Assembly (NCBI RefSeq): GCF_013122565.1
Contig: NZ_CP053258.1
Strand: one strand, 5' to 3'
DNA: 64,000 bases
Source: Escherichia coli
Lineage (GTDB): Bacteria > Pseudomonadota > Gammaproteobacteria > Enterobacterales > Enterobacteriaceae
Shown: positions 6,373 through 59,628 of the stretch, in pieces
Numbering within the stretch: the stretch's first letter is position 1
How the letters are laid out: each line of letters opens with the position of its first letter
The notes under the pieces: generated by a model
Database searches by the model: none
The model's input: the letters and a program-made list of their open reading frames with translations, nothing else
What the model was told of the DNA's origin: nothing
Translations under genes and position numbers: made by a program

Positions 6373-8304
6373 TCAAATGGGGCGGATACTTTCTTCATCC
6401 AGCTCCGCATCGAAAAACCGACGCAGGGTCTGAATATTATTATCCGCAATAATGGACTCGCGCGCCTGCGCAAGTTTTTCTTCGTATATCGCCTGACGCC
6501 ACTCCAGCGGCGTACGCACCGCGGGATTATCATCTTCAACGATAGTCAGTTCAACCGTTGAACCTTTTAACATGCTCAACGCTTCAGCCAGTTTTTGCTG
6601 TGCACCGCGGTTGTTCAAATGCCGCTGAGAGGAGCGCAAATGCAGACATACTGCGTTATCACTCTCCTCTTTCCAGGCATTTAACGCCACCTGTTCGACC
6701 AGTTTTGGTAGCGAAAGTTGACTCACCTGAGCCGCCCACGCGTCGCGCTCAATGGCTTCTGCCGCCAGCTTCGCCGCCAGTTCCGGCGTTTTTTCATGTT
6801 CCAGCGCTTTTTTCAGCGCCTTCGGCGTGGCGACCACTTCTTTTTGCTGCATCACTGGAGTGGTCGCCTTCCAGCGATACGCTTCTTTTTTAGCTGGCGC
6901 TTTTTCCAGCGCCGATGGCACCGGACGCGCCTGAACGCGATCTGTGACCGAAGCCAGTCTTTCCAGCGCAGCGTTATTCACCGGCCGCGCGCGGGTAGCG
7001 GCTGCCGGTTCACTCTTTTTTGCTTTGGTTGCTCCCTGCACGCGCTGCAACTGCTGGCGCGCCGCCAGCACCTGGCTGGTGGTTTCCGGGAGCGGTACAG
7101 TCGGTGCCTGCTGCGGCGCTGATTGCGGTTGCGGCGGCACCTGGGTTGGGGTCATTACTGCCGTTGGCGCGACGGGTGCAAAGGACTGTCGTGGCACTTC
7201 TGGCTCAGGCAGCGGCATACGCGGATGGAATGCCAGCGCGCGCAGCAGCGTCATCTCAACGCCCATGCGGCGGTCCGGCGCATACGGTAATTCTTTGCGA
7301 CCAATCAACAGCGTCTGATAGTAAAGCTGAATATCCGTCGGCGGTATGGTGCGCGCCAGTTCACGCATCCGCAGCTCGATGGCGGCCATGTCGTTGCCAA
7401 GTGCAGCAGGCGAAAGTTGTACCATCGCAATACGATGCAACAGACCGAGCATTTCCACCAGCAACGCTTCCCACTCGATACCACGGGCAGCGGCTTCATT
7501 AATCAGCGCCATTACGCGCTCGCCGTTGGCCTCGACCATCGCTTCAACCAGCGACAGCGCCTGATCGTCGTCAAGCGTACCCAGCATCGTACTGACCGCC
7601 TGGGTTGAAACCTGGCCGTCACCGCTGGCAATCGCCTGGTCGGTCAGACTTAAGGCATCTCGCAGGCTGCCTTCAGCGGCGCGTGCCAGCAATTGCAGCG
7701 CCCGCGGCTCGTGAGCGATATGTTCTTCGTTGAGGATGTGCTCAAGCTGATGGCGAATTTGCTCGACATCCAGCGCCTTGAGATGAAATTGCAGACAGCG
7801 TGACAAAATCGTCACCGGCAATTTCTGTGGATCGGTCGTCGCCAGCAGAAACTTAACGTGCTCCGGCGGCTCTTCAAGGGTTTTTAACAGTGCGTTGAAG
7901 CTGTGGCGCGACAGCATATGCACTTCGTCGATGAGATAAACTTTGAAACGACCACGCGCCGGAGCGTACTGGACGTTATCCAGCAGGTCGCGGGTATCTT
8001 CAACTTTGGTGCGCGAGGCGGCGTCGATTTCAATCAGATCGACAAAGCGCCCCTGCTCGATTTCACGACAGTTATCGCACACGCCGCACGGCGTCGCGGT
8101 AATGCCGGTTTCGCAGTTTAGCCCCTTCGCCAGCAGTCGGGCGATAGAGGTTTTTCCGACGCCACGGGTACCGGAAAAAAGATAAGCATGATGAATACGC
8201 CCTAACGACAAGCCGTTCGCCAGTGCGGTCAGCACATGTTCCTGGCCGACGACGTCAGCAAAGGTTTGTGGGCGCCATTTTCGGGCTAAGACCTGATAAC
8301 TCAT
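6373..8304 (-). CDS. dnaX: DNA polymerase III tau subunit (gamma produced by -1 frameshift)
   Basis: 643-aa ORF MSYQVLARKWRPQTFADVVGQEHVLTALANGL... with Walker A GTRGVGKTS. Confidence 0.97.
   Translation of the reverse strand: MSYQVLARKWRPQTFADVVGQEHVLTALANGLSLGRIHHAYLFSGTRGVGKTSIARLLAKGLNCETGITATPCGVCDNCREIEQGRFVDLIEIDAASRTKVEDTRDLLDNVQYAPARGRFKVYLIDEVHMLSRHSFNALLKTLEEPPEHVKFLLATTDPQKLPVTILSRCLQFHLKALDVEQIRHQLEHILNEEHIAHEPRALQLLARAAEGSLRDALSLTDQAIASGDGQVSTQAVSTMLGTLDDDQALSLVEAMVEANGERVMALINEAAARGIEWEALLVEMLGLLHRIAMVQLSPAALGNDMAAIELRMRELARTIPPTDIQLYYQTLLIGRKELPYAPDRRMGVEMTLLRALAFHPRMPLPEPEVPRQSFAPVAPTAVMTPTQVPPQPQSAPQQAPTVPLPETTSQVLAARQQLQRVQGATKAKKSEPAAATRARPVNNAALERLASVTDRVQARPVPSALEKAPAKKEAYRWKATTPVMQQKEVVATPKALKKALEHEKTPELAAKLAAEAIERDAWAAQVSQLSLPKLVEQVALNAWKEESDNAVCLHLRSSQRHLNNRGAQQKLAEALSMLKGSTVELTIVEDDNPAVRTPLEWRQAIYEEKLAQARESIIADNNIQTLRRFFDAELDEESIRPI
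7010..7021 (-). promoter_or_regulatory. dnaX: dnaX programmed -1 ribosomal frameshift site (slippery A AAA AAG, then -1 frame stop)
   Basis: Minus strand reads GCA AAA AAG AGT GAA encoding ...KAKKSE...; heptamer A AAA AAG at 7015-7021; shifting -1 gives AAA AAA GAG TGA, so the gamma product ends at TGA 7010-7012. Confidence 0.9.
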
Positions 8305-23370: not shown

Positions 23371-23724
23371 CTATTCGTCGATGATTGACTCGAATCCGCC
23401 ATAAATCATTCGCTTACCATCAAACGGCATGGACTCGCCGAACTCTTTCATCCGTGGGTCCGACATCATCTTTTGATTAGCAGCGTCGCGGACCTCTTTT
23501 GAAGGGTATTCAATCCAGCTAAAGACAACCTCTTCATTCTCTTCCGCTTTCACTGCCATACGAAAATCGGTCACTTTGCCATCCGGTACATCGCTGGCCC
23601 AGCATTCGACAATACGAAGCGCACCGAACTCTTTAAATAATGGCGCAGCCTTAGCGGCCATTTCCCGATAGGCATCCTTTTTATCGGCAGGAACGGCAAC
23701 CACAAAACCATCAACATACTTCAT
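23371..23724 (-). CDS. ybaA: DUF1428 protein YbaA
   Basis: 117-aa ORF MKYVDGFVVAVPADKKDAYREMAAKAAPLFKEFGALRIVECWASD... Confidence 0.9.
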   Translation of the reverse strand: MKYVDGFVVAVPADKKDAYREMAAKAAPLFKEFGALRIVECWASDVPDGKVTDFRMAVKAEENEEVVFSWIEYPSKEVRDAANQKMMSDPRMKEFGESMPFDGKRMIYGGFESIIDE

Positions 23725-23834
23725 CAGACATACCTCCGAAGCGTACTGCGCAGCCAGACAATTCTTGCGACGTCAGTTGTGGTTAAAGTTTAGCCACGCT
23801 GGGATTTTTTGACGAAACGGTGGGAGGCAGAAAT

Positions 23835-23948
23835 GGGTGGGGGCCCTGCCAGCTACATCCCGGCACACGCGTCATCTGCCTTGGCTGCTTCCTTCCGGAC
23901 CTGACCTGGTAAACAGAGTAGCGTTGCGGGAGAACCAACAGAGCCCCC
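23835..23948 (-). ncRNA. ffs: 4.5S RNA (signal recognition particle RNA)
   Basis: Reverse complement of 23835-23948 reads GGGGGCTCTGTTGGTTCTCCCGCAACGCTACTCTGTTTACCAGGTCAGGTCCGGAAGGAAGCAGCCAAGGCAGATGACGCGTGTGCCGGGATGTAGCTGGCAGGGCCCCCACCC (114 nt), the E. coli ffs sequence as I recall it; location between ybaA and atl matches K-12. Confidence 0.93.
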
Positions 23949-24024
23949 ATTGAGAGCGTTGAGAACCAACGCGCAGGCGCATTATCACTGCTGCCCCGGC
24001 TAATTGCAACCCATTGCGTGCCAG

Positions 24025-24414
24025 ATGCTGGTTTCTTGCGCAATGCGGCTTCACTCGGGCGTTTTTCCAGATTATGCTGAAAAATTACCTCAGGAAGAAA
24101 AGATGGAAAAAGAAGATTCATTTCCCCAACGCGTCTGGCAAATCGTCGCCGCTATTCCCGAAGGCTATGTAACCACTTACGGTGATGTGGCGAAACTGGC
24201 GGGATCGCCCCGCGCCGCGCGCCAGGTGGGCGGTGTGTTAAAGCGTCTCCCCGAAGGCAGCACCTTACCCTGGCATCGGGTGGTTAATCGCCACGGCACA
24301 ATTTCGCTAACCGGACCGGATTTACAGCGTCAGCGACAGGCATTACTGGCAGAAGGTGTGATGGTATCGGGAAGTGGGCAAATTGACTTGCAGCGTTATC
24401 GCTGGAACTACTAA
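24025..24414 (+). CDS. atl: DNA base-flipping alkyltransferase-like protein Atl (YbaZ)
   Basis: ORF 24004-24414; internal start gives MLVSCAMRLHSGVFPDYAEKLPQEEKMEKEDSFPQRVWQIVAAIPEGYVTTYGDVA... (129 aa). Confidence 0.9.
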   Translation: MLVSCAMRLHSGVFPDYAEKLPQEEKMEKEDSFPQRVWQIVAAIPEGYVTTYGDVAKLAGSPRAARQVGGVLKRLPEGSTLPWHRVVNRHGTISLTGPDLQRQRQALLAEGVMVSGSGQIDLQRYRWNY

Positions 24415-36047: not shown

Positions 36048-38493
<2,446 letters not shown>

Positions 38494-38623
38494 GGTGTAA
38501 CAACACTCCGCTGTAGATGACTGTGTACCTCACGCAACGTATCGATGCGCGCAAAGGCCTATTGTGACAAGAAACGGGGGCAATTGTCAGCCCACAAGAC
38601 GCAGAAAGTCACCGAATACAAAT

Positions 38624-38650
38624 AAAAAAGGCACATCAGTAGATGCGCCC
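38624..38650 (-). terminator. rho-independent terminator of hupB
   Basis: On the minus strand: stem ggcgcauc/gaugugcc (one G-U pair), loop uacu, followed by UUUUUU. Confidence 0.7.
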
Positions 38651-38684
38651 TTGAACTTCGTCACATCCCCACTGGGGACAACGC

Positions 38685-38957
38685 TTAGTTTACCGCGTCT
38701 TTCAGTGCCTTACCTGCACGGAAGCTCGGTACTTTAGCGGCAGCGATGGTGATCTCTTTACCGGTCTGCGGGTTGCGACCAGTACGGGCAGCACGCTCTT
38801 TAACGGCAAAAGTACCAAAACCTACCAGTGCTACATCATCCCCTTCTTTCAGAGATTCAGTTACGGAAGCAATAATAGCATCTAACGCACGGCCAGCCGC
38901 AGCTTTAGAGATATCAGCCCCTGCAGCAATCTTGTCGATCAATTGAGATTTATTCAC
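38685..38957 (-). CDS. hupB: DNA-binding protein HU-beta
   Basis: 90-aa [72 protein letters not shown]... Confidence 0.97.
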
Positions 38958-39165
38958 TCTTCTCTTCCTCTTTATAATTTATATCGCACTTGAATCCTTC
39001 AAGGTACGAACGCGCAGCAGTTATATCAGGCCAGCCATCCCCTTACAACACCCCTTAATAAGGGCAAGCCCAATCCGCCATCTAACTTAGCGAGACAAAA
39101 AAAGGCTGGCAAGTCCGAATTAGCCTGCCAGCCCTGTTTTTATTAGTGCATTTTGCGCGAGGTCA

Positions 39166-41520
39166 CTATTTTGCAGTCACAACCTGCATGCCAGACGGTT
39201 CATTTTGCAGCGCCAGAGTCAGAACTTCCTCAATGCGCTTCACAGGATGAATGTCCAGATCGGCAATTACGTTGTCAGGAATCTCTTCCAGATCGCGTTT
39301 ATTTTCGAACGGAATTAACACTGTTTTAATCCCGCCGCGATGCGCTGCCAGTAGTTTTTCTTTCAAACCACCGATCGGCAGTACCTGACCACGCAGAGTG
39401 ATCTCACCGGTCATTGCCACATCGGCACGAACCGGGTTACCGGTCAGGCAAGAAACCAGCGCGGTGCACATAGCAATACCAGCACTCGGACCATCTTTCG
39501 GCGTCGCACCTTCCGGTACGTGGACGTGGATGTCGCGTTTTTCGTAAAAATCAGGGTTGATCCCCAGTTTTTCCGCACGCGCACGAACCACCGTTAATGC
39601 CGCCTGAATGGACTCCTGCATCACTTCGCCGAGCGAACCGGTATAGGTCAATTTGCCTTTCCCCGGAACACATGCGGTTTCAATGGTCAGCAAGTCACCG
39701 CCCACTTCAGTCCACGCCAGACCGGTTACCTGACCGACACGGTTTTCGTTATCCGCGCGTCCATAGTCAAAACGCTGAACACCAAGGTAGTCATGCAGGT
39801 TGTCGCCGTTAATTTCGATATGTTTTAATGACTTATCGAGCAGTAACTGCTTAACCGCTTTACGGCACAGCTTGGAGATTTCACGCTCCAGACCACGCAC
39901 GCCCGCCTCACGGGTGTAGTAACGAATAATGCCGATAATGGCGCTATCGTCGACGGTCAGCTCACCTTTTTTCAGTGCATTACGTTCAATCTGCTTCGGC
40001 AGCAGGTGACGTTTGGCGATGTTCAGTTTTTCATCTTCGGTATAACCGGAGAGGCGAATCACTTCCATACGATCCAGCAGCGGTGCCGGAATGTTCATGG
40101 AGTTCGACGTCGCGACAAACATCACGTCGCTGAGATCGTAATCCACTTCCAGGTAGTGGTCGCTGAACGCTACGTTCTGCTCGGGATCCAGCACTTCAAG
40201 CAGTGCAGAGGCCGGATCGCCTCGCATGTCAGAAGACATTTTGTCGATCTCATCGAGCAGGAACAGAGGGTTTTTCACGCCCACTTTCGCCATTTTCTGG
40301 ATCAGTTTACCCGGCATAGAACCGATGTAAGTACGGCGGTGACCACGGATTTCCGCTTCATCACGCACGCCGCCCAGCGCCATACGGACATATTTACGCC
40401 CGGTGGCTTTGGCAATGGACTGACCCAGGGAGGTTTTACCTACCCCCGGCGGCCCAACCAGGCAGAGGATCGGTCCCTTGATTTTGTTGACACGGCTTTG
40501 AACCGCAAGGTACTCAAGGATGCGATCTTTCACGCGCTCCAGACCATAATGGTCGGTATCAAGGATTTCCTGCGCCTGACGCAGGTCTTTTTTGACCTTG
40601 CTACGCGCATTCCACGGCACCTGAACCATCCAGTCGATATAACCACGCACTACGGTCGCTTCTGCCGACATCGGAGACATCATTTTCAGCTTCTGCAACT
40701 CTGCTTCCGCTTTCTCTTTTGCCTCTTTCGGCATTTTCGCCGCATCGATTTTGCGCTTCAGGGCTTCGTTTTCGTCCGGCGCGTCATCCATTTCACCGAG
40801 TTCTTTCTGAATAGCTTTCATTTGCTCATTCAGATAGTACTCACGCTGGGATTTCTCCATCTGCTTTTTAACGCGGTTGCGAATGCGTTTCTCAACCTGC
40901 AGCAGATCGATTTCCGATTCCATCATTGCCATCAGATATTCCAGACGTTCGTTAACGTCGGACATCTCCAGAACGGACTGTTTGTCAGCCAGTTTCAGCG
41001 GCATATGTGCAGCAATGGTATCCGCCAGACGCGCCGGATCGTCGATGCTATTCAGCGACGTCAGCACTTCTGGTGGGATCTTTTTGTTCAGCTTGATGTA
41101 GCCTTCGAACTGGCTGATTGCAGTACGCACCAGCACTTCCTGTTCCCGCTCATCAATGGTCGGCGACTCCAGATACTCCGCCTTCGCAGAAAAGTGTTCG
41201 CCATTGTCAGAGAGCGCAGAAATACGCGCGCGCTGTAACCCCTCGACCAGCACTTTGACGGTGCCGTCAGGCAGTTTCAGCATCTGCAATATAGAGGCCA
41301 CGGTCCCGACGGTGAAAAGATCGTTTACACCCGGCTCATCCGTTGAAGCTTCTTTCTGCGCGACCAGCATAATTTTTTTATCATGGTCCATCGCCGCTTC
41401 CAGACAACGGATAGATTTTTCCCGCCCGACAAATAAGGGGATGACCATGTGCGGATAAACCACCACATCGCGCAGCGGCAATACGGGGATTTCAATGCGT
41501 TCAGAACGCTCAGGATTCAT
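39166..41520 (-). CDS. lon: ATP-dependent protease Lon
   Basis: ORF 39166-41565; internal start gives [44 protein letters not shown]... (784 aa); Walker [10 protein letters not shown], catalytic PKDGPSAG. Confidence 0.97.
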
Positions 41521-41603
41521 AGAGCTCTCTCTTAGTTTAATTTCCGCCAGGTAATCAGATGACACGACTGTGCTTCACGCCATCTATTAACATGTACGTC
41601 AGT

Positions 41604-41631
41604 ATATGGGGATGTTTCCCCCACATTCAAC
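41604..41631 (-). promoter_or_regulatory. sigma32 (heat-shock) promoter of lon
   Basis: Minus strand reads GTTGAAT-14 nt-CCCCATATA about 85-110 nt upstream of the lon start. Confidence 0.7.
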
Positions 41632-41655
41632 GCCGAGAATAGAGGAAAAATTAAA

Positions 41656-41679
41656 GGGGAGATAAAATCCCCCCTTTTT
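41656..41679. terminator. hairpin with flanking A/T runs in the clpX-lon intergenic region (clpX terminator; may also end the antisense sRNA SraA)
   Basis: gggga-gataaaa-tcccc followed by ttttt on the plus strand, preceded by an A-rich run; an sRNA (SraA/PsrA3) is reported at this locus in K-12, recalled from memory and not confirmed from sequence. Confidence 0.55.
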
Positions 41680-41707
41680 GGTTAACTAATTGTATGGGAA
41701 TGGTTAA

Positions 41708-56012: not shown

Positions 56013-57377
56013 ATGAACGATTATAAAATGACACCAGGTGAGCGGCGCGCGACCTGGGGTTTAGGAACCGTTTTCTCGTTGCGCATGCTGGGCATGTTTA
56101 TGGTTCTGCCGGTTCTGACCACGTACGGCATGGCTCTGCAAGGTGCCAGCGAAGCATTAATCGGTATTGCCATTGGTATTTATGGTCTGACTCAGGCCGT
56201 TTTTCAGATTCCGTTTGGCCTGCTTTCCGACCGCATTGGTCGCAAACCATTAATTGTCGGTGGGCTGGCGGTGTTTGCCGCCGGTAGCGTTATCGCTGCG
56301 CTTTCTGACTCCATCTGGGGAATTATTCTGGGCCGGGCGCTACAAGGCTCCGGTGCGATTGCCGCTGCCGTTATGGCGCTGCTTTCCGATCTCACGCGCG
56401 AACAAAACCGCACCAAAGCGATGGCGTTTATCGGCGTGAGCTTTGGCATTACCTTCGCCATTGCGATGGTGCTTGGCCCAATCATCACTCACAAACTTGG
56501 GCTGCACGCGCTGTTCTGGATGATCGCTATTCTGGCAACGACCGGCATTGCATTGACCATTTGGGTTGTGCCCAACAGTAGCACTCACGTACTTAATCGT
56601 GAGTCCGGAATGGTGAAAGGCAGTTTCAGTAAAGTACTGGCGGAACCGCGGCTGCTGAAACTCAACTTTGGCATTATGTGTCTGCACATGCTTCTGATGT
56701 CTACGTTTGTTGCCCTGCCCGGACAGCTGGCTGATGCGGGGTTCCCGGCGGCTGAACACTGGAAGGTCTACCTGGCAACGATGCTAATCGCCTTTGGCTC
56801 GGTCGTGCCTTTCATAATCTACGCTGAAGTTAAGCGCAAAATGAAGCAAGTCTTTGTCTTCTGCGTCGGGTTGATCGTGGTTGCGGAAATTGTGTTGTGG
56901 AACGCACAAACGCAGTTCTGGCAACTGGTAGTCGGCGTGCAGCTTTTCTTTGTGGCGTTTAATTTGATGGAAGCCCTTCTGCCCTCACTTATCAGTAAAG
57001 AGTCGCCAGCAGGTTACAAAGGTACGGCGATGGGTGTTTACTCCACCAGCCAGTTTCTTGGCGTGGCGATTGGCGGTTCGCTGGGCGGCTGGATTGACGG
57101 CATGTTTGACGGTCAGGGTGTATTTCTCGCTGGCGCAATGCTGGCCGCAGTGTGGCTGGCAGTCGCCAGTACCATGAAAGAACCGCCGTATGTCAGCAGC
57201 TTACGCATTGAAATCCCTGCGGACATTGCCGCAAACGAAGCGTTAAAAGTACGTTTGCTGGAAACTGAAGGCGTCAAAGAAGTGTTGATTGCAGAAGAAG
57301 AACATTCAGCTTATGTGAAAATCGACAGCAAAGTGACGAATCGCTTTGAGGTTGAACAGGCAATTCGTCAGGCATAA
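56013..57377 (+). CDS. yajR: MFS transporter YajR
   Basis: ORF 56007-57377; ATG at 56013 gives MNDYKMTPGERRATWGLGTVFSLRMLGMFMVLPVLTTYG... (454 aa). Confidence 0.93.
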   Translation: MNDYKMTPGERRATWGLGTVFSLRMLGMFMVLPVLTTYGMALQGASEALIGIAIGIYGLTQAVFQIPFGLLSDRIGRKPLIVGGLAVFAAGSVIAALSDSIWGIILGRALQGSGAIAAAVMALLSDLTREQNRTKAMAFIGVSFGITFAIAMVLGPIITHKLGLHALFWMIAILATTGIALTIWVVPNSSTHVLNRESGMVKGSFSKVLAEPRLLKLNFGIMCLHMLLMSTFVALPGQLADAGFPAAEHWKVYLATMLIAFGSVVPFIIYAEVKRKMKQVFVFCVGLIVVAEIVLWNAQTQFWQLVVGVQLFFVAFNLMEALLPSLISKESPAGYKGTAMGVYSTSQFLGVAIGGSLGGWIDGMFDGQGVFLAGAMLAAVWLAVASTMKEPPYVSSLRIEIPADIAANEALKVRLLETEGVKEVLIAEEEHSAYVKIDSKVTNRFEVEQAIRQA

Positions 57378-57392
57378 AAAACGCGGCGAATT

Positions 57393-57490
57393 GCCTGCTG
57401 CGCTACGCTTACCAGGCCTACAAAGTTCTTGAGTTACAAACCGTTGTAGGCCGAATTAGCTGTTCATGCTGCATTCGGCATGAACAAAAC
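57393..57490. repeat. REP/BIME element between convergent yajR and yajQ
   Basis: gcctgctgcgctacgcttaccaggcctac followed by gtaggccgaatt... and palindromic tgttcatgc...gcatgaaca; typical REP sequence. Confidence 0.75.
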
Positions 57491-57504
57491 GCACATAGTC
57501 GCGA

Positions 57505-57996
57505 TTAATCGCGGAAGTTTTTGAACTGGAACGGCTGGCCGAGATCGCCACCACGTACCATCGCCATGACAGCCTGCAAATCATCACGAGATTTGCCCGT
57601 TACGCGGATTTCATCGCCCTGAATTTGCGCCTGCACTTTCAGTTTGCTGTCTTTGATCATCTTGACGATTTTTTTCTGGGTCGCGCTCTCAATGCCCTGT
57701 TTCAGTTTCGCTTCCACAAACCAGGTTTTACCGCTATGAACGATATTCTCCGGTACATCCAGTGAACTGCCTTCAATGCCGCGCTTCAGCAGCTTGGCAC
57801 GCAAAATATCCAGCAACTGATTGACCTGGAAATCGGACTCGCTCAACACTTTGATGGTTTTGCTGGCGTCGTTCAGCTCAAATGAGGCTTCAACATTACG
57901 GAAGTCAAAACGGGACTCCACTTCGCGGCTCGCGTTATCGACCGCGTTACGTGCTTCCTGAAGATCAACTTCAGAGACAATATCGAAAGATGGCAT
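57505..57996 (-). CDS. yajQ: nucleotide-binding protein YajQ (UPF0234)
   Basis: ORF 57505-58164; internal start at 57994-57996 gives [57 protein letters not shown]... (163 aa). Confidence 0.93.
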
Positions 57997-58163
57997 CTTT
58001 TCCTCTCCCTTCATTTTTGATGCGAAGCATAATACCCGCAAAGTTAAATAACCGACAGTCCCGCACCAGGACGTATCCCTTAATTGTGCATAGTCACAAC
58101 AGCATGCACAATTAAGGGATAGCCTTATTGAACACCCGGAGTGGTTGCGGGTGAGGAGGAACA

Positions 58164-59628
<1,465 letters not shown>

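Follow-up and report, generated by a model that had tools for sequence, protein, structure and literature searches.

The 4.5S RNA gene ffs of Escherichia coli and the 112-codon open reading frame that runs through it

Introduction

In a stretch of 64,000 nucleotides from Escherichia coli (contig NZ_CP053258.1 of assembly GCF_013122565.1; hereafter the window), an open reading frame (ORF) of 112 codons passes through a segment of 114 nt that resembles the RNA of the bacterial signal recognition particle (SRP). Does this locus encode an RNA, a protein or both? An earlier note on this DNA, which a model had made from the letters and a list of ORFs, drew attention to the overlap. The ORF is present in that list exactly as the note described it, on the minus strand at 23783-24121, with 112 amino acids and an ATG start. 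The note had left open how the two are oriented; the ORF and the RNA gene lie on the same strand, and the ORF reads through the RNA in sense. The evidence set out below indicates that 23835-23948 is almost certainly ffs, the single-copy 4.5S RNA gene of E. coli, and that the ORF across it is a frame that happens to be open. Coordinates of the features at the locus are collected in Table 1.

Table 1. Features of the ffs locus, in positions of the window.
Feature	Coordinates	Strand	Remarks
ffs, mature 4.5S RNA, the RNA subunit of the bacterial signal recognition particle	23835..23948	-	114 nt, 100% identity to K-12 b0455
Core matched by Rfam RF00169 (ffs nt 9-105)	23844..23940	-	Full model; the same 97-nt span is the SRP_RNA of PGAP in strain R1
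Domain IV core GGUCAGGUCCGGAAGGAAGCAGCC (as RNA/DNA also GGTCAGGTCCGGAAGGAAGCAGCC), ffs nt 43-66	23883..23906	-	Exact 24-mer across phyla
GGAA (GNRA-type) tetraloop, ffs nt 53-56	23893..23896	-	Position from sequence and fold
Motif GGAAGCAGCCAAGGCAGA of the earlier note, ffs nt 57-74, 3' half of domain IV just past the GGAA tetraloop	23875..23892	-	Single exact match
Putative 5' leader of the 4.5S precursor, GCGUUGGUUCUCAACGCUCUCAAU	23949..23972	-	Presumed length, 24 nt; processing of the precursor by RNase P from PMC7049720
Sigma-70-type promoter-like site: -35 TTGCAA (24009-24004), 17-nt spacer, -10 GATAAT (23986-23981)	23981..24009	-	Promoter scan
Spurious 112-codon ORF	23783..24121	-	Sense through ffs promoter, leader and RNA; antisense overlap with the 5' end of atl/ybaZ

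Identity of the RNA Gene

The RNA, read as the reverse complement of 23835-23948, starts with GGGGGCUCUGUUGG, ends with GGCAGGGCCCCCACCC and is 114 nt long. In E. coli K-12, ffs (b0455) lies at NC_000913.3 476448-476561 between ybaZ and ybaA and is annotated as “signal recognition particle 4.5S RNA.” Alignment of the window with the records of K-12 and of strain R1 matched 114 of 114 nt in both, which bears out base for base the claim of the earlier note that a complete 4.5S RNA is present on the minus strand. The leader and the promoter hexamers are likewise identical, the promoter region and flanking genes are the same, and the differences from K-12 in the aligned region all fall outside the gene: one at window 24015, where K-12 has G, on the upstream side of the promoter, and two downstream, 39 and 41 nt beyond the mature 3' end. 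Translation of the 112-aa ORF implies one further difference from K-12, at its codon 25.

With the gathering thresholds of Rfam 15, three matches were obtained in the window as a whole. The family RF00169 (Bacteria_small_SRP) is matched on the minus strand at 23844-23940 with 68.1 bits, compared with a gathering score of 40 (E = 5.5e-13), over model positions 1-97 of 97 and untruncated, and Rfam retains it as the best family among the overlapping matches of the SRP clan. The covariance-model search that the earlier note had proposed as a check on its reading therefore does find an SRP RNA. The domain IV motif given in the note also occurs just once in the window, within the segment and on the strand that it named.

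Is this RNA of the small or of the large type? The large SRP RNA (Bacillus-type, approximately 270 nt; RF01854) shares the domain IV core, and the identical 24-mer occurs in Bacillus and Paenibacillus loci. The large type, however, has an Alu domain, whereas the RNA of the window is a single hairpin of 114 nt that lacks one. This hairpin is of the small type, since it makes up all of the conserved block, which is bounded by the leader on one side and stops 4 nt past the 3' end on the other. Membership of the small SRP RNAs is thus indicated by a score above the gathering threshold, the presence of domain IV, a covarying hairpin, orthology with K-12 ffs and the lack of an Alu domain.

Fold, Domain IV and Covariation

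The minimum-free-energy fold of the ffs RNA is one long hairpin (-57 kcal/mol; z = -3.15 relative to dinucleotide shuffles), with domain IV near its tip and the GGAA tetraloop as its cap. The Ffh M domain binds to a symmetric loop in the core of domain IV. In a scan of one genome per species, the exact 24-mer of this core was found in at least 120 stretches of DNA, and the matches listed include Alpha-, Beta- and Gammaproteobacteria, Actinomycetota, Bacillota, Chloroflexota, Planctomycetota and others. The pair that flanks the core (alignment columns 37/62) covaries among 101 distinct sequences, being CG in 39, UA in 27, GC in 25 and AU in 5.

A MAFFT alignment of these 101 sequences from many phyla, analyzed with RNAalifold, yielded only 11 pairs around domain IV and was set aside for the covariation test. 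Outside domain IV the distal stems vary in length from clade to clade and are not kept in register, and for this reason a subset of 26 gamma- and beta-proteobacterial sequences was used instead. Covariation was scored on this subset with an Rfam-derived structure projected onto it, so that the structure was independent of the alignment. Standard pairs are formed by 85.1% of cells for the structure as given, compared with 32-53% when the partners are slid by 1-3 columns. The same shift lowers the number of cells changed on both sides from 122 to 20-38 and the covariation score from 0.395 to 0.07-0.16. None of 500 shuffles reached the observed score, and changes on both sides were seen in 15 of the 33 pairs. 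Base-pair covariation in these 26 sequences thus supports the predicted long hairpin.

The 24-mer occurs twice on one scaffold of Stutzerimonas urumqiensis (NZ_RBZQ01000004.1), in the stretches 36292-46236 and 48437-58694, which start approximately 12 kb apart. The second copy equals the first from about nt 10 onward and differs at its 5' end. This pair could be a partial duplication of ffs, such as an element integrating into the gene would leave. For Enterococcus, the title of PMC12540744 reports a phage attachment site in ffs.

Predicted Promoter and Leader, and 3' End

Upstream of ffs, the pairing of TTGCAA and GATAAT at a spacing of 17 nt is the only promoter-like match in 23650-24200, where shuffled sequences lead one to expect 0.3. 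In a comparison of five enterobacterial sequences, with Escherichia albertii, Citrobacter werkmanii, Enterobacter sp. and Superficieibacter electus among the sources, both hexamers are conserved; the spacer and the upstream DNA vary. From the position of this site, transcription would start near 23972-23974. The 5' leader of the 4.5S precursor is presumably some 24 nt long, a length that fits the predicted start. Within it (23956-23972, minus strand) a small hairpin is predicted, GCGUUG-loop-CAACGC, of which the stem is conserved and the loop varies among five enterobacterial sequences. RNase P is known to process the 4.5S precursor (PMC7049720).

At the other end, sequences of different genera cease to be conserved 4 nt beyond the mature 3' end (...CCCACCCAUUU). 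Between ffs and ybaA a simple scan detected no intrinsic terminator of canonical form, and when the 110-nt 3' flank (23725-23834, minus strand) was folded, no convincing hairpin of high G+C content with a U-run after it was seen. The one terminator-like match in the scan, at 23957-23943 on the minus strand, spans the junction of the leader with the 5' end of ffs and was taken as a false positive.

The start of the neighboring gene atl/ybaZ (24004-24414, plus strand) is annotated inconsistently. In K-12 the protein has 129 aa and begins at 24025, PGAP gives 103 aa from 24104, and the mechanically called ORF has a TTG at 24004 as its first codon. Counted in the 129-aa form, the Pfam domain starts with residue 33. 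The longer forms start within 16 nt of the ffs -35 hexamer.

The 112-Codon Open Reading Frame

Could the ORF be a real gene, either in its full length of 112 aa or as an inner part of 55 codons that begins at an AUG made up of leader nt -2 and -1 and ffs nt 1? The locus would then have a dual function. Such a reading is very improbable. In its favor, the frame is uninterrupted in the window, in K-12 and in other E. coli. Against it, a stop codon 16 nt upstream of ffs closes the frame in E. albertii, and the limits of the open stretch on both sides are different in Citrobacter, Enterobacter and Superficieibacter. Within E. coli, all four of the differences between the ORF of the window and that of K-12 are non-synonymous, a count that comes from few sites.

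A second point in favor of a coding role is that the ORF has been deposited as a protein. The earlier note had predicted that it would be called hypothetical, and the K-12 allele has indeed been entered as “hypothetical protein” in at least four GenBank genomes, namely E. coli P12b (AFG39350.1), S88 (CAR01799.1) and O25b:H4 (ANK05803.1) and Shigella dysenteriae WRSd3 (ESU77918.1). In a collection of 15 billion proteins, however, this allele belongs to a cluster of only 9 members, those four entries among them, set against DNA that is present in more than 5400 E. coli genomes. The 112-aa product of the window itself has no exact entry in the same collection, nor does either of two inner ORFs of 55 aa. 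The ORF is not annotated in the RefSeq record of K-12, in the PGAP-annotated strain R1 or under the match in the ten best-matching genomes.

The cluster also contains fragments of the ORF that have been deposited as partial hypothetical proteins under the names “Staphylococcus aureus” (a contig of 551 bp) and “Klebsiella pneumoniae” (a contig of 373 bp). For the S. aureus entry at least, this suggests enterobacterial contamination of the assembly.

The properties of the putative product argue against a protein as well. The 112-aa sequence matched no Pfam family at E <= 1, whereas the products of the neighboring genes do match Pfam, ybaA as DUF1428 and atl/ybaZ as the MGMT DNA-binding domain. 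In codon usage the ORF scores -0.125 per codon, whereas the lowest value among the 30 long ORFs of the window is 0.122; this is a weak test when taken alone because the real gene atl scores lower still, at -0.42. The central 38 codons lie inside the very stable hairpin of the RNA.

Expression is a further difficulty. Translation of the full ORF would begin at 24121, antisense to atl and upstream of the ffs promoter. As this codon precedes the -35 hexamer by approximately 110 nt, the ffs transcript does not include it. In 23650-24200, an interval that reaches only about 80 nt upstream of the start codon, the scan detected no second promoter-like site.

The ORF is thus a chance frame, kept open in part by the G+C-rich and stop-poor sequence of the RNA, and it is not to be annotated as a protein. 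The recommendation of the earlier note that the ORF be suppressed in favor of the RNA gene is upheld by the lack of a family match and by the lack of conservation of the ORF in E. albertii and in other enterobacterial genera. Low-level translation of the frame across ffs, as the 112-aa product from some upstream transcript or as the 55-codon part from the AUG that spans the RNase P site, is scarcely to be expected; were it so, the locus would encode an RNA and a protein.

Genomic Setting and Copy Number

The window as a whole is collinear with K-12 438,679-500,499 in reverse orientation, at approximately 98.6% identity, and the order of genes around ffs is that of K-12: pdeB, ybaA, ffs, ybaZ (atl), ybaY and tesB. 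It belongs to the chromosome of an E. coli strain other than K-12. The genes for the protein partners, ffh and ftsY, lie outside the window. A megablast search with 23700-24150 found the region in 5424 of 5426 complete E. coli genomes; the match covers features annotated as “ffs: signal recognition particle sRNA small type,” as an MGMT family protein and as ybaA. The 114-mer alone is present in exactly one copy in each of 5424 of the 5426 genomes, with at least 99% identity in 5420. That the copy in the window is a non-functional duplicate or pseudogene of ffs can be dismissed as extremely improbable, given that all 114 nt are as in the K-12 gene, that promoter hexamers and leader are intact, that the copy sits in the native ybaZ-ybaA interval and that each E. 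coli genome has exactly one place for ffs.

A few of the genomes searched stand apart. For strain EC77 (NZ_CP196708.1) the match to ffs spans 117 nt at 97.4% identity. An indel in this essential RNA is implied, for which faulty assembly may be responsible. No match to ffs was returned for two of the 5426 genomes, and two matches lie on records labeled as plasmids.

Other Features of the Window

Elsewhere in the window, a segment of 2.37 kb (53637-56002) between cyoE and yajR takes the place of 95 bp of K-12. It holds a TacA1-like antitoxin (53712-54089, plus strand; PF08681, E = 4e-17), a GNAT acetyltransferase (54073-54615, plus strand) that overlaps the ORF of the antitoxin, and a Sel1-repeat protein (54671-55666, minus strand). 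From its sequence, the segment looks like a toxin-antitoxin pair of the TacAT type with one cargo gene, inserted in an interval of the core genome. In the adk-hemH intergenic region, 53 nt at 2523-2575 replace 157 nt of K-12 (497821-497977); one possibility is that the difference in length reflects a repeat element present in K-12.

Two further RNA elements are recognized by Rfam. The small RNA sraA (41592-41687, plus strand; 106.7 bits) lies, by collinearity, in the position of the K-12 clpX-lon interval, and the dnaX programmed-frameshift element (6976-7040, minus strand; 96.8 bits) in that of the K-12 dnaX gene.

Expression and Role of the 4.5S RNA

How would this gene be expressed and its product used? 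The promoter-like site at 24009-23981 suggests that ffs is transcribed from a sigma-70-type promoter as a precursor with a short 5' leader, and RNase P would cut off this leader to give the RNA of 114 nt.

Hairpin-shaped 4.5S RNA and Ffh together constitute the SRP, in which the affinity of the Ffh M domain for the RNA is picomolar (PMC4737761). In the “early” targeting complex the NG domain of FtsY docks on the tetraloop of the RNA, and roles have been described both for the tetraloop and for the distal site (PMC4737761). By analogy with the identical RNA of K-12, domain IV of the window's RNA would bind the Ffh M domain to form the particle, and the tetraloop would help to bring FtsY to the ribosome-bound particle. 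The GTPase dimer of Ffh and FtsY would then shift to the distal (5'/3') end of the hairpin, where GTP hydrolysis would be triggered and the nascent membrane protein passed to SecYEG.

Conclusion

The ffs locus is a long-known and ordinary gene of E. coli, and the biology of the SRP gains nothing new from its recognition here. The value of the case is for annotation only: a structured, G+C-rich RNA gene leaves a long open frame, which has entered databases from some pipelines as a “hypothetical protein.” RNA models that are run ahead of ORF calling remove such spurious entries.
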